A DNA stretch of 64,000 nucleotides from Bryobacterales bacterium (GTDB lineage: Bacteria; Acidobacteriota; Terriglobia; Bryobacterales; Bryobacteraceae), in the NCBI GenBank assembly GCA_043755435.1, contig JAYUSZ010000181.1:3228-67227 (forward strand). The letters run 5' to 3'. Within the stretch, counting starts at the first letter, position 1, and every line of letters begins with the position of its first letter. Positions 2,988-33,947 of the stretch are shown one piece after another. The position numbers and the translations under genes were made by a program. Under the pieces are notes generated by a model. It saw only the letters and a program-made list of their open reading frames with translations, was not told the origin of the DNA and did no database searches.

Positions 2988-3174
2988 CTAAGCTAAGCTT
3001 TTTCTATGCCTTGAAGCCAGAGATCGGGATAGCGGGTGGTACGTTTTCCCTTTTCCTTGCAACACCAACGATAAAAATAAGTTGTAATAGTACTACTACA
3101 TTTAATATACTGCTGGACAGCGATTAGTTTTACGAGGTCATTGCATTAGCAAAAAGGTCTCTGGAGGAAAATTC

Positions 3175-4734
3175 TTGCTGCTCAACCGTTTAACGCTCAT
3201 GGCCACTTTGGCCTTTGGCATCACTTCTTCTCTTTTCGGCGCCGGCGCCCCAGTTTGGACCGGCCCCATCACTCAAACTTGTACGGTCAACACCGTCTGC
3301 CCCACAGTTAACTTTACGCTGGTTTCCGGCTCTGGCACTGGAGCAGTTACTTTTGCTTTGGCCAGCGGCGCCATTCCAACTGGTATGACTTTGAACGCGA
3401 CCAGCGTCAGCGGAACGCCTACTGCAGTGGGCACTTTCACCTTCCGCATCAGCGCCACTGACACGCTTCATCATCCAGGAACCCAAAACCATTTCGTAAT
3501 CACCGTAACGGCTGCTCCAGTGATCATTGTTGATCCAGGTGCACAGACGTTTGTAACCACCTCACCGCTTCCAAATGCTTCGTCTTGCGCCCACTACACC
3601 ACAACTCTGGTATCCACAGGCGGACAAGCACCTTACACCTACACAATCACCAGTGGCGCACTTCCTCGTCCATTAACAATGAGTTCGGCTGGTGTAATTT
3701 CAGGTTCTGCTTTTCACGATGGTTCTTATAGCTTCACGGTTCAGTCTACCGATTCGTTTAGCCCGGCTCACACCGCATCAAGAACCTTCGTGTTGAACGT
3801 TCTTCCTTGCGCTGGTACGGTGCAACCTTTGGTTCTCAGCACTTCATCCGTGATTCCTGGAACCACAACATGTTCAGCTACTAGCCTTCAGCTTACTGCC
3901 ACAGGCGGAATTGCTCCCTATACCTTTGCTGTTGCAGGCGGTTCATCTCTGCCTGCTGGTGTCACACTGACTTCGGGTGGTCTGCTTTCTGGAACCCCAA
4001 TGACTGCAGCAAGCTATACGTTCAGTCTAACTGTAACGGATTCCAACTCTCCAACCACTACTACGACGAAGGCATTCACTTACGCAGTATCGGTTTGCCC
4101 TCCTCCTCCAGCAGCTTTGGTGATCACCACAACTTCGCCTCTGCCACCTTCTACCATATGCCTGCATACTCCGATCCAACTGGCGGCAACAGGTGGCGTC
4201 CCCGGATACACGTGGTCAATCACTACGGGTGCCCTGCCTCGGCCGACAACGCTATCCTCAAGCGGACTGATCAGCGGCTTGCCTTTCCACGTTGGCGTTT
4301 ACACCTTCACGGTGCAGGTACGCGATTCGGTAGGCACATTGGCTACGCAAGCCTTTAGCTGGACAATCAACGCCTGCAGCGGCGGCTCTTCTAGCGCTCC
4401 TGAACCGGTAGAAGGTTCGTTGACGGTTTCAGAAGACGGCTTGCCCAACTTCACACTGGCTCAAGCAGCAACCACTGATATTGATGGCACGCTGGAAATC
4501 TATCCTGCAAACGCTGAAGGCGAATTTACTTACTTCGCTAACGCAATGCGTCGGGTTTCTTTCAACATCAAGGCTGGCAGCACCACAGCAGTATTCTCGA
4601 AAGCGAATAGCCGCCTGTCAATGCTGTCCGATGGTGGCGCAGCTACTCTTGTGGCAACCTTGTTTGTGGATGGAGTTGAAATGACTCCTGAAGCTGCAAC
4701 GGTCACGGTTCGTGATAACGGCTCGGTGGAATAA
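3175..4734 (+). CDS. Secreted repeat protein with four putative Ig-like (He_PIG / cadherin-like) modules
   Basis: TTG 3175 is preceded by GGAGG (3163-3167), and the N-terminus is signal-peptide-like. Four internal modules share the pattern LP-x-G-(V/M)TL..G-x-(L/I)SG(T/S)P...Y(S/T)F(S/T)(V/L)...D(S/T). Confidence 0.6.
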   Translation: MLLNRLTLMATLAFGITSSLFGAGAPVWTGPITQTCTVNTVCPTVNFTLVSGSGTGAVTFALASGAIPTGMTLNATSVSGTPTAVGTFTFRISATDTLHHPGTQNHFVITVTAAPVIIVDPGAQTFVTTSPLPNASSCAHYTTTLVSTGGQAPYTYTITSGALPRPLTMSSAGVISGSAFHDGSYSFTVQSTDSFSPAHTASRTFVLNVLPCAGTVQPLVLSTSSVIPGTTTCSATSLQLTATGGIAPYTFAVAGGSSLPAGVTLTSGGLLSGTPMTAASYTFSLTVTDSNSPTTTTTKAFTYAVSVCPPPPAALVITTTSPLPPSTICLHTPIQLAATGGVPGYTWSITTGALPRPTTLSSSGLISGLPFHVGVYTFTVQVRDSVGTLATQAFSWTINACSGGSSSAPEPVEGSLTVSEDGLPNFTLAQAATTDIDGTLEIYPANAEGEFTYFANAMRRVSFNIKAGSTTAVFSKANSRLSMLSDGGAATLVATLFVDGVEMTPEAATVTVRDNGSVE

Positions 4735-4761
4735 CAAGCGTCTAAACTAGTAATTGGTCCG

Positions 4762-4801
4762 AAAAACCCGCCAATCAGTATTACTGATTGGCGGGTTTTT
4801 C
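4762..4801 (+). terminator. Rho-independent terminator after the Ig-repeat gene
   Basis: Perfect hairpin CCCGCCAATCAG (4767-4778) / CTGATTGGCGGG (4784-4795) with a 5-nt loop, flanked by AAAAA and TTTTT. Confidence 0.75.
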
Positions 4802-4837
4802 ATTGGGTTTCTAACTTGGCTAGACTGGATTTCTAAC

Positions 4838-5998
4838 ATGTATCTGCTCCTCTACTTGCTTACCTTCGCAATCTCTACCGCTGGTCCATTGCGAGTTCAA
4901 ATAGGAGAACCGCGTTTGGTTGCCGCGGGTCCTCCTGAAGAGCACCGTTGGGGTCGGTGGCAGTTCCCTGTTCTGGAACAGGCGCCGAACGGCAAACTCC
5001 TGCTATTCCTCCACGTGGAGCCTGATTCCGCTGCTTCCTACGGCAAGGCTCGCCGCGTTTATGTCTCAAGCGACCACGGCCGCAATTGGCGGGAAAACGT
5101 TACGGCTGCTCAAGGTGCCTACGGTTTGCGCCTGCCCAATGGCGATTGGCTCCGCACAGATACCGTGGCCGCCACCCCTGCATCATCAATCACGTTGCCA
5201 AAACAGGTTGCTGAACGGGTCAGCTACCGAACCCCTTTCCAACTCTATCGTCTCCGTGATTTGCCAGAGCAGTTACGCCAGATCTTCTTCCAACGCTTCT
5301 ATGGAAGCGCATGGCACCCCCAGCAGCAGGCTCTTGACGATCCGCACGCCCTCCGTTATGCAACCGGCGGACTTATCCCGCAAATCTGGTGGGGCGATAT
5401 AAGAGTGATGCCAAATGGGAAATTAGTAGCTCTAACTTACCCTTATTATCACGACAGCCAACCAGTGCCCTACACCTCCGCAGCATCCTATGTATCCAAC
5501 GACCAAGGCCGGAATTGGATCAAAACCGGACACATTCTTTACGACGAACCCGACCGCCGCCGCGACGGTTTTACCGAACCCGCACTGGAGCGGCTAAGGG
5601 ATGGAAGCCTGTTCGCCGTTCTGCGAACCACCGATGGTAACGGCATCGGTCCCATGTTCAAGAGCCGATCAACAGATGGTGGCAGCACCTGGACAAGACC
5701 ACAGTCATTCACGGAAACAGGCGTGTTGCCGCGGTTGCTTCTACTTGGCAACGGAGTTTTGGTGTTAAGCTCGGGCCGGCCCGGAGTGGATTTGCGTTTC
5801 AGCCAGGATGGTGGGGCAACATGGACCACGCCTCGTCAGTTAGTGCCAGTTCCGGATACAGAAAAGCCGCAGGCCGATTCCTGCGGGTATACTTCGCTGG
5901 TGGCTTTAGGGCGTAACCGCTTCCTGATTGCCTACTCCTGGTTTACGCCCCCAACCGGAAGAAAGTCGATCTTTGTTCGCCAGGTGCTAGTGCGGTAG
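4838..5998 (+). CDS. BNR/Asp-box repeat protein (sialidase-like beta-propeller)
   Basis: Four Asp-box motifs: SSDHGRNW, SNDQGRNW, STDGGSTW, SQDGGATW. I place the start at ATG 4838 (MYLLLYLL..., hydrophobic leader) because the track start at 4754 would include the upstream terminator hairpin. Confidence 0.7.
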   Translation: MYLLLYLLTFAISTAGPLRVQIGEPRLVAAGPPEEHRWGRWQFPVLEQAPNGKLLLFLHVEPDSAASYGKARRVYVSSDHGRNWRENVTAAQGAYGLRLPNGDWLRTDTVAATPASSITLPKQVAERVSYRTPFQLYRLRDLPEQLRQIFFQRFYGSAWHPQQQALDDPHALRYATGGLIPQIWWGDIRVMPNGKLVALTYPYYHDSQPVPYTSAASYVSNDQGRNWIKTGHILYDEPDRRRDGFTEPALERLRDGSLFAVLRTTDGNGIGPMFKSRSTDGGSTWTRPQSFTETGVLPRLLLLGNGVLVLSSGRPGVDLRFSQDGGATWTTPRQLVPVPDTEKPQADSCGYTSLVALGRNRFLIAYSWFTPPTGRKSIFVRQVLVR

Positions 5999-6172
5999 CT
6001 GGTAAGCCCCAGTCACCAGATCAAACGTCCAATACCTATGTACGTGTACGATCGAAGGGCGTCCCACGATTCGTTCATGACACGGCGTGCTATTCGCAAT
6101 TATTGATTCCTCACGTGCATTTTCCCCCTCACTCGATGTACCCTAACTGTTGACAGGGAAGGTCAAACCAAC

Positions 6173-6970
6173 ATGAATGGCAAACTAAAGCTTCTACCTA
6201 TACTCTTGTTCGGAATTTATGCGATCTGGTTCTATTTTGATCACCGGGAAACAGTCCCCATTACCGGTCGCAAACACATGGTGGATATGGACCCGAATCA
6301 GGAGGCCGCGCTAGGGCTTCAATCCTACCAGCAGATTCTCAATGAATCGCAAGTAGCTCCAGCCAGTAGCAAGCTTGTGCAAACGGTGAAGTCGGTAGGC
6401 CAGCGTCTGGCAAAGGTAGCGGAAGACCCGGGATTTAAGTGGGATTTCAATGTGCTGATTTCCGATCAGGCCAACGCATTCTGCCTTCCTGGCGGCAAAG
6501 TGGCGGTCTACACCGGCATCATTCCAGTAGCGAAAACAGATGACGGCCTGGCAATCGTGATGGGTCACGAAATCGCCCACGCCATTGCTCGCCATGGTGC
6601 AGAGCGCATGGCCCAACAGAAGTTGGTTCAAATGGGTGAAATTGCCGCTGGTGTAGCCATCGCCACCATGGAATCGCGCCAACAGCAGGGCATTATGGTG
6701 GCTTTAGGCTTGGGAGCAAAGTATGGAATTCTCATGCCCTTTTCCCGTGATCATGAATCTGAGGCCGACCAGATGGGCCTTATCTATGCTGCCCGCGCTT
6801 GTTTCGATCCCACTGAGGCCCCCAAAGTCTGGGCTCGTATGGGTTCCATCAGTCATGGCCAGCCCAATGAATTCATGTCGACTCACCCCAGCCATGAACG
6901 CCGTATTGAGCAGTTTGAGAAGTGGATGCCCGAAGCTTTAGAAGTGAAGCGAAAGAACTGCGGTAGCTAG
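6173..6970 (+). CDS. M48-family zinc metallopeptidase
   Basis: N-terminal membrane anchor, HEIAHAIARH (HExxH) and a downstream ESEAD motif. The length is typical of YcaL/Oma1-like M48 peptidases. Confidence 0.85.
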   Translation: MNGKLKLLPILLFGIYAIWFYFDHRETVPITGRKHMVDMDPNQEAALGLQSYQQILNESQVAPASSKLVQTVKSVGQRLAKVAEDPGFKWDFNVLISDQANAFCLPGGKVAVYTGIIPVAKTDDGLAIVMGHEIAHAIARHGAERMAQQKLVQMGEIAAGVAIATMESRQQQGIMVALGLGAKYGILMPFSRDHESEADQMGLIYAARACFDPTEAPKVWARMGSISHGQPNEFMSTHPSHERRIEQFEKWMPEALEVKRKNCGS

Positions 6971-7069: not shown

Positions 7070-9430
7070 GTGCCGCGCCGTTTGATTTTTCTCAGCCGTT
7101 TCCGGATATTGCTCGCGTTGGTACTCTCCACCGTGCCGTTCGCGCTAGCTCACGCCGCAACGCTGCCTGCCGGAAGTATGCTGGAACTTCGTCTAAGGCA
7201 GGAAGTGAATTCCTTTTCCTCGGAAGAAGGCGCGTTAATCCAGGCTTACCTTTGCTCACCCGTAATGCTGGAAGGCAAGATCTACCTTCCCATGGAAACC
7301 GTTGTACGCGGGCGAATCAAGGAAGTTAAGAGAGTGGGTCTTGGACTGGTCCGGGAACGGGCTTGGCTCCAGTTGGAATTCGATCAGATATTGCTCCCAA
7401 ATGGGGAGATCTACAACATCCGAACCAAAGTTGTTGAGGTGGAAAACGCCAGAGAGCGCGTCCTCGCAAATGGCAGGATCCGCGGCATTCGCTCAGCAGA
7501 CATGCCAGGATATCGCAGTTCCGGCGTAATCACTTCGCTGGCCGCCTTGGATCCCATCGCCCTGGCCTTTGCCAGCACAGCGTCAGCCGCTTTGCTGCGA
7601 TTCCCCGAACCGGAAATCCGCTTCCCTGTGGGCACGGAACTTCTCGTTCGATTGGCTGAACCGGTAGAATTGGGGAACTCCTTTTCCGATCCCACTCACA
7701 AACTACACGTTACAGATGATGATCGACACGAGTTGGGCACAACCATCCGGAAAATGCCTTTCCGCACTAAAACGCTGATCGGCAAACGCGAGTCAGACTT
7801 AGTGAATGTGTTGATGGTTGGCTCACGGAATGCCATCGAAAGGGCTTTTGTAGCCGCCGGCTGGGTAGAGGCTGATCGGGCCACGGCTCAATCCAACTAT
7901 CGGGCTTTGCGGGCCTTTGCAGAAAATCAGGGATATCGGGCTGCGCCCATGTCAACGTTGTTATTGGGCGGAAAGCGGCCCGTTTCCACGTTGTCAAAAG
8001 CCATGAACACGTTCCATAAACGTCACCATGTCCGCATCTTCGAAACTGGCGAGACTTGGCAAGGTCATGAACTTTTCAGCGTATCCTCTACGCAGGATGT
8101 TGGTGTTGGATTTTCCAAGGGAGAAAAGAAATTCACCCATCGTATTGACCCCCATATTGACAACGAGCGGGCAAAGGTTTTGAACGATCTCCTGCTTACT
8201 GGTTGTGTTGATGAGGCTGAGGCTTTGGATCGTCCTTGGGTTCCAAGGGATGCCAAGAACGCTGGTGGCGAAAACCTCGCCACGGATGGAGCCATTGCCA
8301 TCATCCGTTTGAACGATTGCATAGTCCCCCGGCGGTTCGACGAAGCGATTGCTCCTCCACCGGGACCTTTTAGAGGCAACGTCATTTCCCGGGCCAGCCG
8401 GCAAACCATCCTCACCGTGCGCAACGATTTCTATCGCGGAACGTTCGTCTATCAGGGCATTAATGGTGCGATTGCTGGGTTCAAACGCATTCAAAACAGA
8501 AACCTGGAAAAAAGCCCTCGGGAGGTCCGCCAAACTGGAGTCTCTTCTCAATCCTTCCTTCCCTTCAGTTCGTCACTAACTCCCTTACCCAGCCCTATTG
8601 GCCCTGCCCCGCCGCCTCCTCCTCCGCGGGAAACCCCCTACGATATTTGGGAGGCTCCCCGGGTGGAGCTAAGCATGGATTTCGGTTTCCTTCGCTTCGG
8701 AAATAACAGCAGCGGTGCAGAAGGTGTGGTGATTACTCATAGGTTTCCCTCGACGAAAGGTTCCAGCCAACCATTTACGGTGATAGCGGAAAACTTGGTA
8801 CGCTCGGGAATAAGTCTGGGAGGGTCCGTCACGCTGAATTCCCAACGCTGGATGTCTCACGAATTAGGCCTCCATTATCAACGTGGGAGTTTCAAATTAG
8901 GTCTGAAAAGCGTTACCAAAACAGGTTCCGCCGACCTCCCTACAGTGGAGGAACAGAACGCGGGAATCGTAACACGCCAGTTTTCCTACAATACCCTGCT
9001 CAATTTCAAGCCCAGGGAAAGCCGTTGGCGGCCGTATTTGGCGGCAGGACCCGTTCTGCAAATGATCAATCTATCGGATTCCCCGTTTAAGCAAGCTCGA
9101 GGGCTTTTCCGGTTTGGCCTGAACAATGTTGGAATGATTAGTGCTGCCTATAACTTCGGCAACGCAGCCCCGCTGGAAGGTGGTGGCATTTTCCAGATAG
9201 GCGCAATTGTAGGCGCTGGCTTTAAGTACCGTGTGCATCCCCGCTGGACTCTACGATTCGACTATCGCGATACAATAAGCAAGAGTCCTAATTTCCTTAA
9301 GAAGTCACTCACCCAATCCAACATCACCCCAATTGAAGAGGGCGATCCTCAACCAGCCTCAGCACCACCCCTGGTCCGTGGACGGCTGATTCAGCAACGC
9401 ATGACAGTGGGATTTTCTTTTACCTTTTGA
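7070..9430 (+). CDS. LssY_C-like domain protein fused to a C-terminal outer-membrane beta-barrel
   Basis: The ORF opens at 7025, but GTG 7070 gives a signal peptide (VPRRLIFLSRFRILLALVLSTVPFALAHA). The central segment (NVLMVGSRNAIERAFVAAGWVEAD ... HKRHHVRIF) matches my recollection of the LssY C-terminal domain. A poly-Pro linker (PAPPPPPPRE) follows. The C-terminal ~250 aa have alternating beta-strand character and end in the OMP-type terminal F (GFSFTF). Confidence 0.6.
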   Translation: MPRRLIFLSRFRILLALVLSTVPFALAHAATLPAGSMLELRLRQEVNSFSSEEGALIQAYLCSPVMLEGKIYLPMETVVRGRIKEVKRVGLGLVRERAWLQLEFDQILLPNGEIYNIRTKVVEVENARERVLANGRIRGIRSADMPGYRSSGVITSLAALDPIALAFASTASAALLRFPEPEIRFPVGTELLVRLAEPVELGNSFSDPTHKLHVTDDDRHELGTTIRKMPFRTKTLIGKRESDLVNVLMVGSRNAIERAFVAAGWVEADRATAQSNYRALRAFAENQGYRAAPMSTLLLGGKRPVSTLSKAMNTFHKRHHVRIFETGETWQGHELFSVSSTQDVGVGFSKGEKKFTHRIDPHIDNERAKVLNDLLLTGCVDEAEALDRPWVPRDAKNAGGENLATDGAIAIIRLNDCIVPRRFDEAIAPPPGPFRGNVISRASRQTILTVRNDFYRGTFVYQGINGAIAGFKRIQNRNLEKSPREVRQTGVSSQSFLPFSSSLTPLPSPIGPAPPPPPPRETPYDIWEAPRVELSMDFGFLRFGNNSSGAEGVVITHRFPSTKGSSQPFTVIAENLVRSGISLGGSVTLNSQRWMSHELGLHYQRGSFKLGLKSVTKTGSADLPTVEEQNAGIVTRQFSYNTLLNFKPRESRWRPYLAAGPVLQMINLSDSPFKQARGLFRFGLNNVGMISAAYNFGNAAPLEGGGIFQIGAIVGAGFKYRVHPRWTLRFDYRDTISKSPNFLKKSLTQSNITPIEEGDPQPASAPPLVRGRLIQQRMTVGFSFTF

Positions 9431-19411: not shown

Positions 19412-20059
19412 CTAAGGTAACTCTTTCTCAATCCTGTTCAAAAGCCGTTCGACGAACCGAACGCCCTTATCTCCGGTGCGTTGCACGTGATACATCAGCC
19501 CGACTTGCTTGTAAAGCGACATTGCCTCGTGAAGATCGGCCATCACATCGTCGATAGGTCGAAAACGAACGGGCGAGCAACCCAGAACCATGTCCACTGA
19601 AATATCCAATCGCTGAAGTGATGTTCTGGGTCGGTACCTTCGATTGCCGGAAAAACACTGAAACCCCAACTCCTCCAAGAGTTGATGAGCAACTCCCGAT
19701 GTCTTGTTCCATGGCGGCACATATCCCACGATAGGTTCCCCAATGGCCTGTTGTAGAATCTGTTTCCCATGCTCCAATTCTTTGCTTATCAGACTTCGCT
19801 CTAAGTGACCTGGAAATTCATCGGAGTAGCCTGACGGCCGCGCGCGATTGATATGCGCATAGCCGTGCTGAAATACTGCAATGCCGGGGCGCTCACGAAA
19901 CATGCGTGAAGTTGCCGCTTCAAGGTGTTGTGGGATCACTGCCGCGATGGTTGGCAATTGCCGTTCCCGCAGCGTCCGCAACACGCCATGGACTGCGACA
20001 TCATCTGGACCCACGTCATCCAAACGATGGAACAAAGTCGATTGCAACAAATGTTTCAT
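19412..20059 (-). CDS. Polysaccharide-deacetylase-like protein (DUF2334-like)
   Basis: FHRLDDVGPD and QHGYAHIN motifs resemble the Asp and His metal/catalytic motifs of the CE4/DUF2334 fold. Start ATG 20059 forms an ATGA overlap with the upstream stop. Confidence 0.5.
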   Translation of the reverse strand: MKHLLQSTLFHRLDDVGPDDVAVHGVLRTLRERQLPTIAAVIPQHLEAATSRMFRERPGIAVFQHGYAHINRARPSGYSDEFPGHLERSLISKELEHGKQILQQAIGEPIVGYVPPWNKTSGVAHQLLEELGFQCFSGNRRYRPRTSLQRLDISVDMVLGCSPVRFRPIDDVMADLHEAMSLYKQVGLMYHVQRTGDKGVRFVERLLNRIEKELP

Positions 20060-20805
20060 CGCCGAAAAGCTCCCCCGCCACACTTGCCCATCAACCCTTC
20101 AGGACGTGAAACGCTGCGATAGTGAAATACAAAACTGGAAGGCACAAAGCCAGTGACCATCCCTGCCTTCTTCCATCGCTTTTGCAATTCAGTCTCATTG
20201 CCAACTAGCCGAAATCCAGGATCAAAAACGCAATGCCGGGAAAACGCACCCTGCCTCCATCGCTCTGTTTTAGCCATCATAAAAAAGCCGTTTATGGGTG
20301 CAGAAACCGCATCAGGTGCAGCTTTACGCAGCGCTCGTGCAATGGAATCGATCTGCTTTGGGGAATCAGTCACCGCCTCAGTATTAGACAAGTAGCATTG
20401 CACATCCTGGCCCGGGGCATCCCCCGGGGCGTTTGTTACTGGGCCCACTAAGTCGAATCCATTTTCCAAAGCATTAGCCAATGGTTCAAACCAATGCGGG
20501 GAAAATTGCACGTCGCTATTGGTGCAAACTGAATACTCCGCGCCGATCGATACAGCCTCGCGAAGCCCCGCATTCCAGGAACGCGTCAAGCCACCTCTTC
20601 TGGAAAATCGCAGCTTGTGGCAATCCGGCTCAGGCCAAGTTTTCCAATCAACCGCATCCCATTCGGGACTTGCATCATCCACCAACAGGTACTGTAGCGT
20701 GGCTCCTCGCACGGGGCAGCGCAACAGAGATTGCACTGCCCGGCGAGCATATTCAAAATGATTGAACGTGGGAATGATGACGCATACGGTTGGTGGCATA
20801 CTCAT
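20056..20805 (-). CDS. Family-2 glycosyltransferase
   Basis: VCVIIPTFNHFEYARRAVQSL...LVDDASPE (GT-A fold with DxD-type motif). Start ATG 20805 overlaps the upstream stop as ATGA. Confidence 0.8.
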   Translation of the reverse strand: MSMPPTVCVIIPTFNHFEYARRAVQSLLRCPVRGATLQYLLVDDASPEWDAVDWKTWPEPDCHKLRFSRRGGLTRSWNAGLREAVSIGAEYSVCTNSDVQFSPHWFEPLANALENGFDLVGPVTNAPGDAPGQDVQCYLSNTEAVTDSPKQIDSIARALRKAAPDAVSAPINGFFMMAKTERWRQGAFSRHCVFDPGFRLVGNETELQKRWKKAGMVTGFVPSSFVFHYRSVSRPEGLMGKCGGGAFRR

Positions 20806-21878
20806 CCAGCCTTTTGTCGCGCTTGCCAATAGGGTGCGCTGGGCCATCGTGTTTCAAGCTGATATTGTTCCAAGCAGCCTGCCAGGTAAGCATCATACGA
20901 TCGTTGCATCACATGGATGTAGGCTAGCTGCGCCTCCCTGTTTCCACTCAACATTTCGGCGGCCGCATGGGCTGCATAATATCCAGAGCCCATGGCCGCG
21001 CCGATGCCGTAGGACGACACCGGATCGTGAGCTGCGGCCGCGTCACCAACGGCTATCCATGCATCCCCAGCAATGGATTCCAATTGTTCGCTTCCTGCAG
21101 GCCAGACGCGCAATGGCCCATTCAAGCTTCCGCCATAAGCTTCCACTCTGGCAAGACTATGCGGTGCGGCGCGCATCAAGGTTAACCAACCTTCCTCTGT
21201 GCGTCCCTGCGTATACTCCGGCAAATCTGAATCAGTTAGGAAAATTACCGATAGTTTTCCGTCGCGAAGCAATCCCGAATACCACCAGCCAGCAGGTACG
21301 GTTTCAACCAATGTGAAGGTGTCTTCCATGCTGCCATTTCGAAAGTCGCCGGCAATTGCCAACTGCTTGTCGTGACGTGCCCGGACAATGCCCATGCCAC
21401 GAGCAATGGAAGCTCGTCGACCAGTAGCATCAATCACAAATTGAGCGGTGATCTGTTTGCCATCGACAATCAGCGACCACTGCTGATCCTCCCACCGGCA
21501 ACTGGTAACCGCCGTGCCGAAGTTCCACTGCGCACCACATTCCACAGCGGAACAAGCAAGCATCGCAGCAAACGCGCGCCGGTCCAATCGCCATCCCGAA
21601 CCGTTCTTGCGTAGGATCGCATCGAAATCATGAACTTCGTCAGATCCCCAAGCAGCGCGATTTCCATGCACGCGGGCATGTGGGCCTGCATTCAATTTTG
21701 CTTCCAGATTCAGCTTCCTGATGAGTGGAGCAAAATCCGCAGGCAGACAATCACCGACGTGGGATGGAGCTTCCGGCTCCCGTTCAAAAACAGCTACAGA
21801 AACGCCGCGGCTGGCAAGCACCATCGCCGCAACAGCACCAGCTGGACCACCGCCTGCGATGGCAACTTCCAGCTTCAT
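20802..21878 (-). CDS. FAD-dependent flavoprotein, LodB/GoxB-like (candidate CTQ-maturation enzyme)
   Basis: N-terminal dinucleotide-binding motif VAIAGGGPAGAVAAMVLASRGVSVAVFERE; halogenase/geranylgeranyl-reductase-like size (358 aa). It lies immediately downstream of the LodA-like gene and is ATGA-coupled to it. Confidence 0.65.
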   Translation of the reverse strand: MKLEVAIAGGGPAGAVAAMVLASRGVSVAVFEREPEAPSHVGDCLPADFAPLIRKLNLEAKLNAGPHARVHGNRAAWGSDEVHDFDAILRKNGSGWRLDRRAFAAMLACSAVECGAQWNFGTAVTSCRWEDQQWSLIVDGKQITAQFVIDATGRRASIARGMGIVRARHDKQLAIAGDFRNGSMEDTFTLVETVPAGWWYSGLLRDGKLSVIFLTDSDLPEYTQGRTEEGWLTLMRAAPHSLARVEAYGGSLNGPLRVWPAGSEQLESIAGDAWIAVGDAAAAHDPVSSYGIGAAMGSGYYAAHAAAEMLSGNREAQLAYIHVMQRSYDAYLAGCLEQYQLETRWPSAPYWQARQKAG

Positions 21879-23749
21879 GCTTTCGAACGGGGCTGTACAC
21901 GATTCAGAGCTTGAGTTGAGTGTGGAACTGGGGCTAGAAGGGGAGCTTCAGCATGTGTCAACTGATGCAACGAAGCATCGTGAACGCTGAACTTGTCCGA
22001 CCGGCCAATTTCCACCCACATTTCCGCAGGCATTCCCAAATCTGCGTGATCATCTGGTCCAAGTTGCCTGGTGACAATTCCTAACAAGTCCCACTCAGCA
22101 ATCATGTTGTTGATCCTGGTTTGAAAGCCTGCTTTCAAGTCACGCATCCAAAACAGCCGGTAATCAAAATGTTTTAGGCGCTGTGCTTTAGTAAGGGAAG
22201 TGTCCTTTGCCCGTTGATATCCATCCAGCGGGTAGACAGTGTTGGGCACCCGTGCAGGCCAATAAGCAGGCAAAGGTAAGTAAGTAGATTGATCGTAACC
22301 TGCAAGGCAACTTGCGGCATCAGTGTGCCAGGGAACTCCAGTCCATCGTGTTATGGATCCTGGCCCACTAGTCATCAGTGGACCACCAGGGTACATGCAA
22401 TGTGCGGGCCGAAGAATAGGACCATAGTCGTCAATTACAGGAGCACCCTCCGGGGCAACATTCAATCGGAAGGGAGCTTTCCACATGATTGCCGAACGGA
22501 ATATCCATGTTATTTCAATGCCTGGATGAAACGGCCCACCCAAACATTGTTCCAATGCTGAGCGGTCAAGCGCCGCCGTGCGATCGGCAATCGGCAGGTC
22601 TTCAAGAACGGCGGGTGTACTAAGAAACCCCGTCAAATCATTTTCAAAATCACCCAGGGACCAGCGTTCCAACCAATCGTGCTGGGTGTGAGTGATAGAC
22701 AAATACTGAAACGGGGTGTTTGGAAAATCACCATGCCCGTCTCCATACATCGGCGGCAGTTTTTCTGCTTGCACCTGCTGGCCGCTTGGGTCGCGGAAGT
22801 TGCTAAAAACAGTTTTCCGCAAACCCTCATTCGTTGGCGAAGGGTCAGCTAGTTTCAGCAGATTTTCCCGCAGCGTGAATTCGCTGGGTGAATTTGCACC
22901 AAACAGGAAATAGTAACCTTGGTTGACCCACTGTAGATCCACCATGCGATGCAGGATGGGGCGGATATGTTGGGTGAACATGATTTTCTTAACCGGTGGA
23001 ATCATGCCTTGTCGTGTATATAGATCAATCACTACGTCATACATGGTTACCGGCGAATCGATACCTGGGGCGAAGTTCGGCGGGGTCACCACAACTGTTG
23101 CGGGCTCGGCTTCAAAGGTGTGGTTGCCAACCGTGATGGTGGCGCGAACGGGCCCGTCGGAAGTATCGTCATACCAACCGTCGTTATTGGCAAATGTGGT
23201 GGCCGGTATCGAAGAGTGGTCGAACGCAGCACCTAAACCTCGGCCACCTAAAACTATCAGGCGTCCTTTATCGTCGGTACGCAATTCACCCAGATAAACC
23301 TTGATTCCTTCGCATTCGCCGGTATCGAATAGCTTGCCTTGTTGATCGATGCCGGAAATGGATCGGGGCCCAGGATCAATCACCAGCTTGGCCCGATCGG
23401 CACCCACATAGTTCATGTTTCGGAAAGTTGACTCCAGCGCGAAGTCTCCCAAATCCATTGCATTGTTAAATTGATACCAGGCGGATTTCCGATTGGCGAT
23501 GTGGACGCGCCAATCGATTTTCGCATCGGTGTCTGTGATCTCCTGAACTGCTTGTCCGTTGGCATCCAATCCGAAAACGCGAAACAGCGCAGCTTGACGC
23601 TTCACTCGGCCTTGGGCATCTTTGAATGGTGGAGGTGGGCTGTGACCGGGGAGATCCGGGGAAAGAAAAAACTCGTCTGGAGAATTGCCTACCCGGGCAA
23701 TTCCAATGCCCGGGTAGATGGCGTAGCTAACAACTGTATCTAGCACCAT
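21875..23749 (-). CDS. LodA/GoxA-family quinoprotein amino-acid oxidase homologue
   Basis: Blocks I recall as conserved in L-lysine epsilon-oxidase LodA: IYPGIGIARVGNS at the N-terminus, WRVHIANRKSAWYQF, DPGPRSISG, GRLIVLGGRG, NNDGWYDDTSDGPV, TPPNFAPGI, HPGIEITW, VPWHTDAASC and AYWPARVPN. AAGGA lies 9 nt upstream of ATG 23749. Confidence 0.7.
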   Translation of the reverse strand: MVLDTVVSYAIYPGIGIARVGNSPDEFFLSPDLPGHSPPPPFKDAQGRVKRQAALFRVFGLDANGQAVQEITDTDAKIDWRVHIANRKSAWYQFNNAMDLGDFALESTFRNMNYVGADRAKLVIDPGPRSISGIDQQGKLFDTGECEGIKVYLGELRTDDKGRLIVLGGRGLGAAFDHSSIPATTFANNDGWYDDTSDGPVRATITVGNHTFEAEPATVVVTPPNFAPGIDSPVTMYDVVIDLYTRQGMIPPVKKIMFTQHIRPILHRMVDLQWVNQGYYFLFGANSPSEFTLRENLLKLADPSPTNEGLRKTVFSNFRDPSGQQVQAEKLPPMYGDGHGDFPNTPFQYLSITHTQHDWLERWSLGDFENDLTGFLSTPAVLEDLPIADRTAALDRSALEQCLGGPFHPGIEITWIFRSAIMWKAPFRLNVAPEGAPVIDDYGPILRPAHCMYPGGPLMTSGPGSITRWTGVPWHTDAASCLAGYDQSTYLPLPAYWPARVPNTVYPLDGYQRAKDTSLTKAQRLKHFDYRLFWMRDLKAGFQTRINNMIAEWDLLGIVTRQLGPDDHADLGMPAEMWVEIGRSDKFSVHDASLHQLTHAEAPLLAPVPHSTQALNRVQPRSKA

Positions 23750-23761
23750 GAGATTGAATCC

Positions 23762-23989
23762 TTACTTCTTTTTCTTAGCGGCAACCTTCTTAACTACTTT
23801 CTTGCCAGGCTGTGTTCCCTTTGCTACAACTTTCTTCTTCGCTTTGCCACCAGGGGTTCCCTTAGCTACAACCTTCTTCTTCGCTTTACCGCCAGGAGTC
23901 CCCTTTGCTACGACCTTCTTCGCTTTACCACCAGGGGTTCCTTTTGCTACAACCTTCTTCTTTACTACTTTTTTCGTTGCTGATTTCAT
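23762..23989 (-). CDS. Lysine-rich repeat protein (histone-H1-like composition), 75 aa
   Basis: ATG 23989 with AAGGAG 7 nt upstream. The sequence is MKSATKKVVKKK(VVAKGTPGGKAKK[K])x3 VVAKGTQPGKKVVKKVAAKKKK, with 29 Lys of 75 residues and no acidic residue. The three full repeats differ only at synonymous third positions. Confidence 0.7.
   Translation of the reverse strand: MKSATKKVVKKKVVAKGTPGGKAKKVVAKGTPGGKAKKKVVAKGTPGGKAKKKVVAKGTQPGKKVVKKVAAKKKK
23798..23953 (-). repeat. 39/42-nt tandem repeat inside the Lys-rich ORF
   Basis: GTT GTA GCA AAA GGA ACC CCT GGT GGT AAA GCG AAG AAG and two further copies plus a partial fourth. Confidence 0.9.
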
Positions 23990-24011
23990 TCTGATTCTCC
24001 TTTTATTCCAG

Positions 24012-24959
24012 TCATCTTTTACGAGCGACCGGCTTACTCGTTGTCCGTCGGAATCGACGGAAAAACCATGCATCATCATGCACTCTACGTTCAGACCAGC
24101 GAGCCCGGCGCACCGCCGCGTCGCTATCTACTGTGAGTGCCAGTGCTGCAGAAAAACCTTCATACTCCTGCAGTGCGTCCACAACCTGTTTGAATCGGGT
24201 GGGTGCAAAGTGGATCATTGCCAACCGCAACCGGTTGTGAAGAATTGTGGCTGATTCAATCGGATAGGGTTGCTCAAGTTGGCGGAAGAAGTGCAGCACC
24301 TCCACCGAAGGCTCAATCCATTGTTCATAACCCAACAGCCACAACCGCATAAAGAACTCGTTATCCACTCCGCCGGAGCAAATCATGCCATCGTCGAACC
24401 CACCCACTTTTTCAAAAACGTCGCGGCGGATAGCTACGCAACATCCAGGCAGAATCGGCACACGAGTCGGGCGTCCTTTGGTTTCATCTACCCAGGCTGC
24501 ATTCAAGGCGTCGTCCTGCAGGTAAAGCCCAAAGCCACGCCACTCACGATTTTCAACGTCAATGATGGTTGGTGCCGCACCACCCACTGAAGGATCAGCA
24601 GCGCGCTCCAACAGTGGTTGCCACCAATTTTCCTGAAGCCAAATGTGAGCATCGCAAAAAATCAGAACCCTGCCTCGCGTATTCTTCGCTCCGAAGTTGC
24701 GAGCACCGGCTACACCAAGGCCAGAGGATCGCAATAGTTTTGCTGGTGCATGGCGGCTGTTCAGGAAGCGAGTTGACCCGTCCGTTGAACCATCATCCAC
24801 CACCAACATTTCGGTACTGGAAGGTAATGTGTCTCGCAAATTTTCCAATGTTTGGCGGAGATATGCACGCTCGTTGCGAGCGATCACCACTACACTCATG
24901 TCTATTTTGTTCGTGGAAGGGGGCATTTTCCTATTGAACTTGTAATGGGATAGTACCAT
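24012..24959 (-). CDS. Family-2 glycosyltransferase
   Basis: MSVVVIARNERAYLRQTLENL...MLVVDDGSTDGS. The true start may be ATG 24926 or 24899 rather than 24959. Confidence 0.8.
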   Translation of the reverse strand: MVLSHYKFNRKMPPSTNKIDMSVVVIARNERAYLRQTLENLRDTLPSSTEMLVVDDGSTDGSTRFLNSRHAPAKLLRSSGLGVAGARNFGAKNTRGRVLIFCDAHIWLQENWWQPLLERAADPSVGGAAPTIIDVENREWRGFGLYLQDDALNAAWVDETKGRPTRVPILPGCCVAIRRDVFEKVGGFDDGMICSGGVDNEFFMRLWLLGYEQWIEPSVEVLHFFRQLEQPYPIESATILHNRLRLAMIHFAPTRFKQVVDALQEYEGFSAALALTVDSDAAVRRARWSERRVHDDAWFFRRFRRTTSKPVARKR

Positions 24960-24985: not shown

Positions 24986-25726
24986 ATGAGCAACGAGCTA
25001 ATTTCCTGCATCCTCGCTACGCGCAATCGCCAGCGATTCATTGAACAAGCGCTTCGATGCTTCGAAGCACAGACATATCGGAACAGCGAATTAATAGTCG
25101 TCGATGATGGAGACGAACCAGTGCGAAACGCATGCCTGGGCCGTCGAAACGTACGTTACATCGGCTTGCCAACGCCCACATTGACCGGTACGAAAATGAA
25201 CATTGGCATAGCAAGTGCCAGTGGCAACATACTGCAGAAGTACGATGACGATGATTATTATCATCCGAAATTTCTTGAGACTGCTATAGCGCACATGCCT
25301 GTCCGCGGGCGTGATCACGCGATTGTTGCCTGGGATTGTTTCCTTGGTCTTGAAGTGGGAGACCCACAGATTCGTTTTTCCGGACATGGTTGGAAGGTTG
25401 GTGGAACGCTTTCGTTTAGCCGCGCACTGTGGGAGAGAAAACCATTTCGCGATCTGCCGCGGTCGATTGATTCCTGGTTTCTGAAAGACCACAAAAAATC
25501 TGCGCGCGTGATTCCTGTATGCGCACCGCAGTATTACGTAGTGGTGCGGCATGGTAACAACACCTGGAAATATGTTGACTACGGCCGCCCCGTGGAAGAC
25601 TATTTCAAAGAGTTGGATGTGTGGCCGAAGCCCATTGAAAAAGTTGTGGCACGGCGTGATCGGGAATTCTATTTGTCGCTAGTGAATGCAGATAAGCCAA
25701 AGCGCACCCGGTGGATAAGAATATGA
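24986..25726 (+). CDS. Family-2 glycosyltransferase
   Basis: ISCILATRNRQRFIEQALRCFEAQTY...LIVVDDGDE. It is transcribed divergently from the minus-strand cluster. Confidence 0.75.
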   Translation: MSNELISCILATRNRQRFIEQALRCFEAQTYRNSELIVVDDGDEPVRNACLGRRNVRYIGLPTPTLTGTKMNIGIASASGNILQKYDDDDYYHPKFLETAIAHMPVRGRDHAIVAWDCFLGLEVGDPQIRFSGHGWKVGGTLSFSRALWERKPFRDLPRSIDSWFLKDHKKSARVIPVCAPQYYVVVRHGNNTWKYVDYGRPVEDYFKELDVWPKPIEKVVARRDREFYLSLVNADKPKRTRWIRI

Positions 25727-31220: not shown

Positions 31221-33947
31221 TTACAACTGGACGGTAAACTGTGTATGAAAAGTGTCCCGAGGATCAATTCTAGCTTTCAGCGCTTTGAGGCGGGTGTAAT
31301 TATTGTGGTTGTCATAATATAAGTCGATTACGGACTGTTTGGTCATGTCAGTGTCACCAAAAGAGCCCCAGAAAAGCCGCTTCTCCTGTCCTGGGCTGAA
31401 TTCAATATCAACCAACAGTTGCATCCGCTGTTGCAGGTCCTCCGCCGTTTGCTCAAACCCATCGTCATAGAAAAGGTCGAAAACAAAACTGAAAACAAAC
31501 TCCCTTTGCGGAATCGAAGTGCTCAGCCGTCTAGCCGAATTCTTGTAATTACCTCCTCCAATCATCATCTGAAAGACCAGGTAAACGCCGTCAGTGTCAT
31601 TGACAACCTCTTCCACTAAACCGACAAACTGATCGACAAATTTGTCAGTCAAAGCACTCATGGTGCAGTTGACTCGCTTCTTGTACGGATACTTAAATTC
31701 ACGCCCGTCCCATGTTGTTGAAGGTGGACGACGCACGAAGGAATCGGCCAAGGTGGAAAGCGGTTGCCTGCCTTCAGTGGTTAAAATGCCCCAAGGAAAG
31801 CCTGCGTTCGCATCAGCAATCTGAATAATGGATTGGAATGGCTGGCCACCATCCACAGGCTCGCCTGCCAAATTTGAATTCACGAGTTCAACCAGAAGAA
31901 GAGGGGGAAGGAAGAATGCAGAACTCGATTCAACGGTCATTGTGAAATCGATGCCAGTCCGAAGCGTCCCAGCTACGACTTGTTTTGTCCACGCTTGAAC
32001 CTCTTTCATGAGGCTCCTATAGCGATTGAATTCATACCTTCGAGTCGCAGCATAGCCGTAGGACTCGCGATGGTCGCTGTCCTTGATGCACTCAATACGA
32101 TAGTTGATGACAATGCCAAAGGATCCGGCGTTCCCGCCCAGTACACCCCAGAAGAGTTCCTCGTCAAGATTGCCTGGCGTGGGTGCGCCGGCTGGGCGTT
32201 GAACAGTACGGATGCTCCCGTCAGCCAGAATGATGGTGAAAGCGGTTACGTAATCCAGAGCCAATCCAAAGCCACGCAGGAAATGGCCGAAGCCTCCAGT
32301 TTGCGCGTGCCCACCAACGCAAACTAATGGACACTCGCCATGTGGGATCGTAATCCCCCGACCTTTGAACCCGGCTGCCAGCGTGGTTAATCCGACGCCC
32401 GGACCCACCTCAACGATGTTGCCGGAAATGTCACGGAAGTGATTAAATGCATCGAGCGACAGTACGATGGTCGAATTATCGCCGGATGACTTGCCGGTGT
32501 ATTGGTGACCTCCGCTGCGCGCTACAACGCGTTTTCCCTGTCCCCGTGCAAACTGAATCGCCGCCTGAATGTCGGCCGCATCAAGAGGGTAGGCAACCAT
32601 GAATGGCGTCATCTGGGCCGTTGGGTACGAAGATGTGGCGTACTGCTTCGCGCGCTGTTTGAACGTCCTATCCGATGGGATGAAGACATCGCCGCGAAAG
32701 CCAGGAATTCGGGGCGCAACTGCTGCAAATAGACCCACGCTTTTGAGGGCCGGAGCAGTAGCGCGGGTCAACGGGGAGAGCGATTCCAACCCATGAGAAA
32801 AAGAAGTTTGGACAGCCCGCGGCGTATATATAGAGCTACTGAGTTCAAGGCTGTTTTCACGATTCAATTGGATTCGAATGAATAAGCTGCGGTCCTTATC
32901 GAGCATGCCATGGCGGCTTTCGCTGAAGGCGAGCTTGCTATGGATTTGTCCGGTGACGCCATTTAAGGCTTCGTTGCGATCCGTGTCCGCCGCAACAATT
33001 TGGTGCAGCTCATGCGTGTCAATGCCTGGATCCTCCGGTACGGCGAACCCAGCATCCACAATGGATTTGATGACTCTGGAACCATAGTAATTCTCCGCAA
33101 TAATGTTGCCTTCAAACTCCTTAGGCAACCCACCCAGGGCGTTGGCCACCAGGGCTTCCAAAGCTGCCTTGTCTTCCGCAGTGGAGCAGGTTGCTGTAAT
33201 CCGAATCACGGAAAGGCCGTGCCTTGCCGAGAAAGCATCAAGAACAAGATCGGAATGTGCGGGAATTTTGGTGTTCAGGAAAAGTGCTTTAGCAAGAAGT
33301 GCAAACTGATCCTTGCCAGGATAAGGGAACGACCGTCTGAACATTAACAAACTCTCGCCCGATGCAGGCTTGAAGGCAATCCTGGTGATTATGTCCGAGT
33401 TCGCGCGTGACCGTGGCAAGGCGGATGCTCCTGAACGGGTCACTGGCTTGCCTACTGGAGTCACGACGCTGAGCTTCGAGACGTAGCCGGAAAGGGGGCC
33501 AAGAGTGCGCATCAGGCAAGATGGTCCTTCGTGAATTACGGATGCGGCAATGCTGCGCTGTGGGTTATCCGCAAGTGGAAGAGCCAGGCCATGTTTAGTT
33601 AACAGTTTCGTCATCTCGCCGGTTGTTGTTCCGGCCTCAGCATTAATTACTCCCTTCGTAACGTCGAGAACATTCAAATCCGCGAGGTTGAGGACAACTC
33701 CACCAACGGGGTCAACCCGGTCGGTCACTGCTTGAGCTTGCATTCCGCTTCTAACGAATAACTTTTCGTTCTGAGAGAGCGCAACGGCCGTCGCGACATC
33801 TGTCATGGACTTTGGGAATAGGACCGGACGCGGGATTTTCACATCAGCAAAGGCGGTCAAACTTTCCGCAGGATAGTTAACGATCCTACCCTGAAACTTA
33901 GGAGTCTTCCGTTTTCCTGTTTTCGATCTAGCAACCTTCTTTGCCAT
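31221..33947 (-). CDS. BBE-like FAD-linked oxidase with tandem duplicated PCMH (FAD_binding_4) modules
   Basis: The second half has canonical motifs RSGGHQY, HGECPLVCVGGHAQTGGFGHFLRGFGLALDYV and a BBE-type tail YTRLKALKARIDPRDTFHTQF. The first half is collinear but degenerate (RSGMQAQ; ASVIHEGPSCLMRTLGPLSGYV). There is no signal peptide, and the N-terminus is basic. Confidence 0.75.
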   Translation of the reverse strand: MAKKVARSKTGKRKTPKFQGRIVNYPAESLTAFADVKIPRPVLFPKSMTDVATAVALSQNEKLFVRSGMQAQAVTDRVDPVGGVVLNLADLNVLDVTKGVINAEAGTTTGEMTKLLTKHGLALPLADNPQRSIAASVIHEGPSCLMRTLGPLSGYVSKLSVVTPVGKPVTRSGASALPRSRANSDIITRIAFKPASGESLLMFRRSFPYPGKDQFALLAKALFLNTKIPAHSDLVLDAFSARHGLSVIRITATCSTAEDKAALEALVANALGGLPKEFEGNIIAENYYGSRVIKSIVDAGFAVPEDPGIDTHELHQIVAADTDRNEALNGVTGQIHSKLAFSESRHGMLDKDRSLFIRIQLNRENSLELSSSIYTPRAVQTSFSHGLESLSPLTRATAPALKSVGLFAAVAPRIPGFRGDVFIPSDRTFKQRAKQYATSSYPTAQMTPFMVAYPLDAADIQAAIQFARGQGKRVVARSGGHQYTGKSSGDNSTIVLSLDAFNHFRDISGNIVEVGPGVGLTTLAAGFKGRGITIPHGECPLVCVGGHAQTGGFGHFLRGFGLALDYVTAFTIILADGSIRTVQRPAGAPTPGNLDEELFWGVLGGNAGSFGIVINYRIECIKDSDHRESYGYAATRRYEFNRYRSLMKEVQAWTKQVVAGTLRTGIDFTMTVESSSAFFLPPLLLVELVNSNLAGEPVDGGQPFQSIIQIADANAGFPWGILTTEGRQPLSTLADSFVRRPPSTTWDGREFKYPYKKRVNCTMSALTDKFVDQFVGLVEEVVNDTDGVYLVFQMMIGGGNYKNSARRLSTSIPQREFVFSFVFDLFYDDGFEQTAEDLQQRMQLLVDIEFSPGQEKRLFWGSFGDTDMTKQSVIDLYYDNHNNYTRLKALKARIDPRDTFHTQFTVQL

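Follow-up and report, generated by a model that had tools for sequence, protein, structure and literature searches.

We analyzed a 64,000-nucleotide stretch of DNA from a Bryobacterales bacterium (assembly GCA_043755435.1, contig JAYUSZ010000181.1; the whole stretch is hereafter called the window), in which a small open reading frame (ORF) for a lysine-rich repeat protein (hereafter the K-rich protein) lies between a glycosyltransferase gene of family GT2 (hereafter GT2a) and a gene for a LodA-like oxidase. The small ORF is a genuine gene under purifying selection, and gene order across related loci indicates that its conserved partner is the upstream GT2a rather than the downstream LodA-like gene. 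GT2a resembles the eukaryotic polypeptide N-acetylgalactosaminyltransferases (ppGalNAc-Ts), and, judging from synteny and a predicted structure, we give an even chance to the reading that GT2a O-glycosylates the K-rich protein, as a disordered acceptor, at Gly-Thr-(x)-Pro sites.

The K-rich ORF is a gene under purifying selection

The K-rich ORF occupies 228 nt at 23989..23762 on the minus strand, and its translation gives 75 amino acid residues laid out as MKSATKKVVKKK + 3 x VVAKGTPGGKAKK(K) + VVAKGTQPGKKVVKKVAAKKKK. Lysine accounts for 29 of the 75 residues (38.7%), whereas Asp, Glu, and Cys are absent, and the protein has a pI of ~11.4 and a mass of 7.6 kDa. It contains four Val-Val-Ala-Lys-Gly-Thr units, three of which are followed by Pro-Gly-Gly. 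A Shine-Dalgarno (SD) sequence, AAGGAG, is located at 24002..23997 (minus strand) with a 7-nt spacer to the ATG, and the TAA stop codon (23764..23762) lies 12 nt ahead of the ATG of the LodA-like gene (23749), overlapping a possible SD (AAGGA) of that gene. The features that an earlier note on this DNA had given for the ORF (75 residues, 39% Lys, the SD, the 12-nt spacing, and the overlap of its stop codon with the SD of the LodA-like gene) are all present; the strand, which had been left unstated, is minus.

Tandem Repeats Finder detected a DNA repeat within the ORF (23814..23962, minus strand) with a 42-nt period, 3.6 copies, 82% identity, and a score of 221. Among the three full repeat units, seven nucleotide sites vary, and every one of them is a synonymous third-position change. 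In pairwise comparisons, the units show no nonsynonymous and three to six synonymous differences (S = 10.3 and N = 28.7 sites); because 26% of the sites are synonymous, the chance of all seven changes being synonymous is ~1e-4. The proportion of synonymous differences (pS) between units reaches ~0.3 to 0.6, yet the neutral Val-Val-Ala-Lys-Gly-Thr core is invariant. Three orthologs were found, at L004 (a Bryobacterales metagenome-assembled genome whose LodA is 90% identical), L084, and L085. Together with the window they have the SD, start, N and C termini, and stop in common, their lengths are 62, 70, 75, and 77 residues, and all indels among them are multiples of three that alter the repeat number. 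The ratio of nonsynonymous to synonymous substitution rates (dN/dS) between the window and the three orthologs is 0.07 to 0.19, compared with 0.09 to 0.11 for GT2a and 0.08 to 0.09 for LodA. When every pair with either the window or L085 is taken, it is 0.07 to 0.22, and the single outlier is the closest pair, L004 and L084, with a value of 0.51 that derives from only 15 differences. Because the repeats vary only synonymously and the dN/dS between orthologs is low, selection acts on the peptide rather than on the DNA repeat, and both statements of the earlier note on this point are upheld.

An AlphaFold2 (AF2) model of the K-rich protein had a predicted local distance difference test score (pLDDT) of 57.5 and a predicted TM-score (pTM) of 0.12, with neither a fold nor secondary structure, so the protein is predicted to be disordered. 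It matched no family in Pfam (E ≤ 0.01) or NCBIfam (E ≤ 1), including the curated models of histone H1-like and other nucleoid-associated proteins in these two databases, and an Rfam scan was also blank. A consensus scan of the locus for promoters and terminators gave no excess over the shuffled expectation. A plus-strand ORF at 23748..24254, which overlaps the K-rich gene, was rejected as an unsupported antisense of it.

GT2a resembles polypeptide GalNAc-transferases

GT2a (24959..24012, minus strand) encodes a soluble protein of 315 amino acid residues that matches Pfam Glycos_transf_2 (E = 4.9e-29) and, above the cutoff of 23 bits, Glyco_transf_7C (PF02709, the Gal/GalNAc-T motif; 25.9 bits). 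Its best sequence matches in the Protein Data Bank (PDB) are polypeptide GalNAc-transferases (phmmer E = 8e-16), with DxH, the Gal/GalNAc-T motif, and the C-terminal His all inside the aligned region. Residues D103-A-H105 and H223 do not vary among 32 homologs and align with the DxH and VGHVFR of GalNAc-T2/T3. The AF2 model of GT2a had a pLDDT of 90.2 and a pTM of 0.88, and in a Foldseek search with this model the top 50 PDB matches were all ppGalNAc-Ts, with query TM-scores (TMq) of 0.70 to 0.79. The DxH and the C-terminal His, both metal ligands, are traits of GT27 and GT60, the families that O-glycosylate peptide Ser/Thr, and DxH in place of DxD is specific to them (PMC7185993). No ricin-type lectin domain was detected in GT2a by Pfam, and the protein stops after the catalytic domain; no signal peptide or transmembrane segment was predicted in any protein of the operon. 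A scan of viral contigs returned relatives of GT2a at 26% identity only. By sequence and model, GT2a therefore appears to be a bacterial, probably cytoplasmic relative of the eukaryotic polypeptide GalNAc-transferases.

Small repeat ORFs follow GT2a homologs

The GT2a family has at least 548 members at E ≤ 1e-20. We read the contigs of selected homologs, about 10 lineages, for ORFs downstream of GT2a; in what follows, identities are to the GT2a of the window, and none of the loci L114 to L134 has a LodA gene. At L114 to L116 (71%), the next ORF after GT2a is K-rich and encodes 81 residues (MKLAIKKAIKK...KGTPKPYPKK...GPTVKPPKK x2). At L117 (62%), a K-rich ORF of 100 residues begins with MKFATKKK, continues with AKKA/PAKKA repeats, and ends in a C-terminal tail with three G-T-x-x-P sites; ORFs of the same design and of 107 and 108 residues follow GT2a at L118 (61%) and L124 (59%), respectively. 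The ORF at L119 and L120 (52%) encodes 65 residues, is not basic, contains GGTPLP three times and AGTPLP once, and precedes a YdjC gene, whereas that at L121 (49%) encodes 102 residues with three 24-residue S/T-rich repeats. The K-rich ORFs of L114 to L118 and L124 have the start MK[LF]A[IT]KK in common, span 81 to 108 residues, and lie at gaps of -4 to +18 nt from GT2a. At every K-rich ORF, an AAGGAGA motif, mostly as AAGGAGAATCA, lies 6 to 8 nt ahead of the ATG, and the gap from GT2a is -4 to +23 nt. The divergently transcribed GT2c (24986..25726, plus strand), a GT2 enzyme of 246 residues by Pfam, adjoins GT2a in all K-rich loci. Copies at L114, L117, and the non-basic-ORF locus L119 are 78%, 65%, and 51% identical, respectively. 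Its PDB matches are glycan-elongating GT2 enzymes, and it is a candidate for extending a glycan.

The small ORFs have a Gly-Thr motif in common. Eight of the nine contain three or four G-T dipeptides and that of L114 contains two, compared with 0.5 to 0.9 expected from composition. A Pro occurs within positions +1 to +3 of 28 of the 29 G-T sites (15 at +1 and 15 at +3), as against 7 of the 19 other Thr residues; GalNAc-Ts are known to favor Pro at +1 and +3 (PMC9950641). The sites in the window protein are AKGTPGG (three times) and AKGTQPG, at Thr18, Thr31, Thr45, and Thr59. From the synteny of GT2a with these G-T...P repeat ORFs we infer that the enzyme transfers a sugar to peptide Ser/Thr, and VVAKGTPGGKAKK, the K-rich repeat unit, and GGTPLPAGTPLP are candidate acceptor peptides. 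The earlier note had remarked in passing that the flanking glycosyltransferases might modify the K-rich protein; with GT2a synteny, the predicted fold, and the G-T...P sites behind it, this appears to be the best-supported link of the protein to any neighbor.

Several observations weigh against glycosylation of the K-rich protein by GT2a. The support comes from only the ~10 sampled lineages. GT2a shares only 22 to 25% identity with GalNAc-Ts and has no lectin domain such as theirs, and the GT-A clade to which it belongs also includes glycan-elongating enzymes (PMC7185993). The Pro after Thr is not invariant, as one KGTEIG unit occurs in L004, and the K-rich ORFs are homologous to those of L119 and L121 by position only. 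Moreover, GT2a homologs at L001 to L003 and at L122, L123, and L125 to L134 (the loci from L122 onward with 50 to 53% identity) have no small ORF downstream but retain the catalytic motifs, so this enzyme family must use other acceptors as well, or ones encoded in trans.

The K-rich protein might instead be a plain histone H1-like polycation, unmodified, that binds DNA, RNA, or polyphosphate and is merely cotranscribed with the glycosyltransferase genes. Its composition (39% Lys, no acidic residues, pI ~11.4) and predicted disorder fit this view, the AKKA/PAKKA repeats of the L117, L118, and L124 orthologs are classic H1-like repeats, and the repeat number differs among close relatives, like that of Chlamydia Hc2 (PMC2848022). 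Pseudomonas AlgP and the tails of mycobacterial HupB and HBHA are likewise extremely Lys-rich, of low complexity, and variable in repeat number. Unlike such proteins, however, the window protein has a high content of Val, Gly, and Thr, matches no H1-type model in Pfam or NCBIfam, and has an invariant neutral V-V-A-K-G-T core that purely electrostatic binding would not need. Its apparent translational coupling to a ppGalNAc-T-like glycosyltransferase is conserved over 59 to 100% identity, and its positional counterpart in L119 is non-basic yet retains G-T-P-x-P. We therefore regard an unmodified H1-like protein as unlikely, and the null hypothesis of the earlier note, a histone-like gene placed here by chance, does not hold because the K-rich gene is a conserved operon member.

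Other features recur around the GT2a homologs. In most sampled lineages, a gene for a Ser/Thr protein kinase (~900-970 residues) fused to PD40/Tricorn-like β-propellers adjoins GT2a (L117:2493-5201; L118:1296-4070; L119:374-3202; L121:1179-4025; L122:218-3004; L125:1-2504; L124:2754-3695); this gene is absent from the 64-kb window. In the ~50%-identity branch, the next gene, with or without an intervening small ORF, encodes a BNR/Sortilin-Vps10-like protein of ~730 to 750 residues (L121:5246-7441; L122:3880-6111; L125:3503-5761), and this protein is a possible substitute acceptor or partner. At L125 (3385-3495; also in L126), the 123 nt that separate GT2a from the BNR gene form a long, almost perfect inverted repeat (TTGTGGGGCGGACCCCCTGGTCCGC ... 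GCGGACCAGGGGGTCCGCCCCACAA), which resembles a repetitive extragenic palindromic (REP) element or a terminator and contains no small ORF. At L119, a YdjC-family gene for a putative carbohydrate deacetylase (5132-5881) lies directly 3' of the GGTPLP-repeat ORF and parallels the DUF2334/CE4-like deacetylase gene of the window, so that a theme of glycosyltransferase, small putative acceptor, and deacetylase recurs. At L114, a subtilase gene (3897-5546, minus strand) is convergent with the K-rich ORF and encodes a C-terminal heptapeptide array, with five DMAVWG[D] repeats in GGMAVWGDMAVWGDMAVWGDMAVWGDMAVWGDASVAG.

The neighboring oxidase is not the conserved partner

The LodA-like gene (21875..23749, minus strand) encodes a 624-residue protein with the Pfam domains LodA_N (E = 1.8e-74; 250.7 bits, cutoff 26.3) and LodA_C (E = 1.6e-32; 112.8 bits, cutoff 25), predicted to be an oxidase dependent on cysteine tryptophylquinone (CTQ). 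The protein scored 442.9 bits with the NCBIfam model for GoxA (NF038173, cutoff 750) and 195.2 bits with that for LodA (NF038172, cutoff 600), missing both cutoffs, and its best PDB match is PlGoxA, the glycine oxidase of Pseudoalteromonas. The CTQ and active-site residues D477, C481, and W534 show no variation across 26 homologs, D477 and C481 align with D678 and C682 of PlGoxA, and H408 is also conserved. We label the protein a LodA/GoxA-family enzyme and not a lysine oxidase because its GoxA score exceeds its LodA score and both fall below the cutoffs; glycine oxidase, rather than lysine oxidase, is its nearer relative. The description "lysine-oxidase homologue" in the earlier note is borne out as to family membership by LodA_N and LodA_C, but it is loose, given 443 bits for GoxA against 195 for LodA. 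The characterized members of the family act on free amino acids, and most of its groups are uncharacterized (PMC4417212).

The linkage of the oxidase to the K-rich ORF was examined in 80 species-level genome loci with LodA-like genes (47 to 90% identity) and in metagenome loci. LodA is paired with LodB at nearly all of 84 loci. By contrast, a K-rich ORF lies upstream of the LodA-like gene at only 2 of the 79 other loci with readable upstream DNA, both of them relatives with at least 90% identity, and no other small repetitive ORF was found upstream of LodA among those 79 loci. At L001 to L003 (LodA 63% identical), the same cluster, GT2c, GT2a-LodA-LodB-GT2b-DUF2334, is present without the K-rich ORF, and GT2a overlaps LodA by 8 nt. 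Conversely, the K-rich ORF occurs with GT2a and GT2c but without a LodA gene in four lineages (L114, L117, L118, and L124).

The earlier note had suggested that the adjacent CTQ quinoprotein could have the K-rich protein as its dedicated peptidyl-lysine substrate, with Lys residues converted to allysine for cross-linking or adhesion. The tight 12-nt operon spacing, the very high Lys content, the ancestral adjacency of the two genes (see below), and the intact CTQ residues and LodB maturase gene speak for such a relationship. As in lysyl oxidase acting on the cross-linking domains of elastin and collagen, a quinone-cofactor amine oxidase would be brought together with a K/A/G/P-rich protein. 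However, lysyl oxidase, a copper and lysine tyrosylquinone enzyme, has no homology with the window oxidase. The conserved linkage that the note had proposed to look for in other genomes fails in both directions, the oxidase scores nearer to a glycine oxidase, and the characterized family members use free amino acids (PMC4417212). There is also no acidic shift in the oxidase of K-rich-bearing genomes; its net charge is -15 in the window, compared with -9 at L001, which has no K-rich ORF, and other homologs range from -4 to -30, so the comparison by itself says little. The proposal is thus distinctly unlikely.

The window resembles the lodAB/goxAB operons of Marinomonas and Pseudoalteromonas, which encode the CTQ-dependent L-lysine epsilon-oxidase and glycine oxidase, in combining a LodA/GoxA-family protein that has the conserved CTQ Cys, Trp, and Asp with a LodB/GoxB-like flavoprotein, but differs from them in that the oxidase falls below both equivalog cutoffs and has three GT2 genes and a gene for a CE4-like deacetylase around it. 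At many LodA-like loci of Bacteroidota and Myxococcota (L026, L035, L040, L041, L046, L061, L063, and L081), a different conserved partner occupies the ~1 kb upstream, an ORF of ~335 to 340 residues that stops 10 to 60 nt before LodA and has the C terminus ...GSINDARRVVYKASADLRRFKNGVPxVEP.

History of the locus and a hairpin after the small gene

Using tblastn with composition statistics switched off, we detected remnants of the 5' end of LodA (~20-23 codons) at three loci that are otherwise without LodA and LodB. At L118, a 23-codon stub (MVDDAIVSYAIHPGIGIARVGNS; 6122-6190) lies directly 3' of the K-rich stop codon; L124 (~2511-2575) has the same stub, and L117 (~7300-7330) a more degraded one. 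These stubs after the K-rich ORF show that deletion of the oxidase block was a secondary event and that the ancestor of the clade with 59 to 100% identity had the order GT2a-K-rich-LodA. In a neighbor-joining tree of GT2a, K-rich lineages lie on both sides of the K-rich-less L001 lineage, which points to loss of the K-rich ORF in the latter. As the LodA block was lost while the K-rich ORF was kept, and the reverse occurred in L001, neither module depends on the other. The gene remnants and the tree thus indicate that the adjacency of the K-rich ORF and LodA is ancestral in the clade and that the two modules were later lost independently. Of the link between the K-rich ORF and LodA drawn in the earlier note, the adjacency itself is old, as the stubs in L118 and L124 attest, whereas a conserved linkage fails; the two products might still interact facultatively.

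A GC-rich RNA hairpin of 11 bp is predicted at 23717..23689 (minus strand), within LodA codons 11 to 21 and ~45 to 75 nt 3' of the K-rich stop codon, with a fold z-score of -2.9. The LodA stubs at L118 (6150-6185), L124 (2540-2575), and L117 (7300-7330) retain the hairpin, which spans 9 to 12 bp across the four loci with z-scores of -2.5 to -3.1 and includes a compensatory change (CCG/CGG in the window, CCU/AGG in the stubs). It was seen only with a K-rich ORF upstream: L001, without such an ORF, lacks it, and it is not typical of the 83 LodA loci compared. It may be a 3' stabilizer, a terminator, or an attenuator after the small gene.

The hairpin bears on two further explanations. The K-rich ORF could be a Lys-codon-rich regulatory leader through which the supply of lysyl-tRNA gates translation of the oxidase, and its 29 Lys codons, the stop codon placed over the putative oxidase SD 12 nt before the ATG, and the downstream hairpin are features that such a leader might show. 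Nevertheless, residues other than Lys are under purifying selection (dN/dS 0.07-0.22, with no nonsynonymous difference between repeats), the ORF survives where the oxidase gene has been deleted, and the oxidase is probably not lysine-specific, making a leader extremely improbable. The K-rich protein could also be the precursor of an exported cationic (glyco)peptide, either an antimicrobial or a glycocin-like peptide that ribosomes make and that is modified after translation (RiPP). Glycocin glycosyltransferases belong to family GT2 and modify the peptide in the cytoplasm. In glycocin clusters (sublancin SunA/SunS, glycocin F, and pallidocin), as here, a small ribosomal peptide, in this case cationic, is encoded beside a GT2-family enzyme, and a hairpin after the peptide gene recalls the attenuators that follow RiPP structural genes. 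Unlike glycocins, however, the window peptide is repetitive and disordered and has no leader, double-Gly motif, signal peptide, Cys, or disulfides, and the enzyme is ppGalNAc-T-like rather than SunS-like. ABC transporter, peptidase, and thioredoxin genes are absent from the window and the related loci, and no sampled locus has a transporter, peptidase, or immunity gene. An exported peptide is accordingly very improbable.

Other genes of the cluster

The remaining genes of the LodA block are all on the minus strand. A LodB/GoxB-like flavoprotein, predicted to be the CTQ-forming maturase, is encoded at 20802..21878 (NCBIfam GoxB 240, LodB 228, and QhpG 169 bits). GT2b (20056..20847), a GT2 enzyme of 263 residues by Pfam, and a putative DUF2334/CE4-like deacetylase gene (19412..20083; DUF2334 E = 1.3e-11, Polysacc_deac_1 27.5 bits with a cutoff of 23.1) are both conserved in L001 and L004; a PDB search with the DUF2334 protein gave no matches. 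Near the cluster in the K-rich-less L001, a gene at 2201-3679 encodes a 492-residue multi-pass membrane protein without a Pfam match, which gives the impression, and only that, of a GT-C/ArnT-PMT-type glycosyltransferase. Elsewhere in the window (31221-33947, minus strand), a 908-residue FAD_binding_4/BBE-like oxidase carries an N-terminal basic tract, MAKKVARSKTGKRKTPKFQ, that is apparently unrelated to the K-rich protein.

Discussion

The K-rich family is visible only through inspection of DNA anchored on neighboring genes. HMMER searches with the K-rich protein against collections of 5.8e9 and 1.84e9 proteins returned only P0121 and a spurious repeat match, P0122. By exact look-up, however, seven of the eight small repeat ORFs, some of them called as genes on their contigs, are missing from a collection of 15 billion proteins; the HMMER negative therefore carries little weight, and the family goes unseen by protein searches. 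For the same reason, we rejected a four-member orphan family that the HMMER searches had seemed to delineate. A scan of Joint Genome Institute (JGI) metagenomes by pattern and tblastn confirmed none of 501 candidates, but this confirmation step is unreliable for a K-rich query because tblastn with default composition statistics did not report even 90%-identical K-rich orthologs. A JGI scan with a DNA pattern for KVVAKGTPG returned FtsH genes only.

The closest parallel to the proposed modification is mucin-type O-glycosylation by the ppGalNAc-Ts (CAZy family GT27). GT2a is like these enzymes in its predicted GT-A fold over the whole length, its DxH motif and C-terminal His, and its PF02709 motif, and the putative acceptor of the window is, like mucins, a disordered tandem repeat with Pro at +1 or +3 of Thr. 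Unlike them, GT2a is bacterial and predicted to be cytoplasmic, without a ricin-type lectin domain and at low sequence identity, and the acceptor would be a 7.6-kDa polycation and not a large secreted mucin. Dedicated pairs of glycosyltransferase and acceptor are known from glycocins, from serine-rich repeat adhesins with GtfA/B, and from EF-P with EarP. In our literature search, we came across no bacterial enzyme of the ppGalNAc-T type that is coupled to a tandem-repeat mini-acceptor encoded with it, and no LodA/GoxA-family gene described within a glycosyltransferase/deacetylase cluster; the term "glycosyl" does not occur in the 2015 survey of the family (PMC4417212).

In the mechanism that we favor, the K-rich ORF would give a strongly translated, intrinsically disordered, polycationic mini-protein, and GT2a would glycosylate, on its Thr, each repeated G-T-(x0-2)-P site, which in the window would be the three AKGTPGG units and AKGTQPG. 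GT2c, as part of the same module, may extend the glycan, and the downstream hairpin could let the message of the small protein accumulate above those of the enzyme genes. The oxidase block (LodA, LodB, GT2b, and DUF2334) would be a facultative downstream module, and neither it nor the K-rich gene would need the other. The glycosylation itself, the identity of the sugar, and the role of the glycosylated polycation are what we infer here; binding of the latter to polyanions is physically likely.

A more elaborate scheme, which we consider decidedly improbable, would draw the whole ancestral operon, GT2c, GT2a-K-rich-LodA-LodB-GT2b-deacetylase, into the synthesis of a ribosomally templated polycationic glycopeptide. 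In it, an N-acetylhexosamine (HexNAc) would be attached at G-T-P, deacetylation by the CE4/DUF2334 protein (with YdjC as its equivalent in L119) would expose the sugar amine, and the CTQ quinoprotein would oxidize this amine or the Lys epsilon-amines to cross-linking carbonyls. Such a glycopeptide-oxidation operon, if it exists, would give the LodA/GoxA family its first macromolecular substrate. The presence of a LodA/GoxA-family gene in a context of three GT2 genes and a deacetylase gene suggests substrates beyond free lysine and glycine.

If GT2a does glycosylate the K-rich protein, the pair would be a bacterial counterpart of mucin-type O-glycosylation with a co-encoded "mini-mucin." It would be a compact and tractable analogue, in which a 315-residue lectin-less ppGalNAc-T-like enzyme acts on a natural 7.6-kDa tandem-repeat acceptor with a simple G-T-(x)-P sequon. 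Such a system would bear on the origin of GT27/GT60-type peptide glycosylation, on cytoplasmic protein glycosylation in Acidobacteria, and on tools for glyco-engineering.

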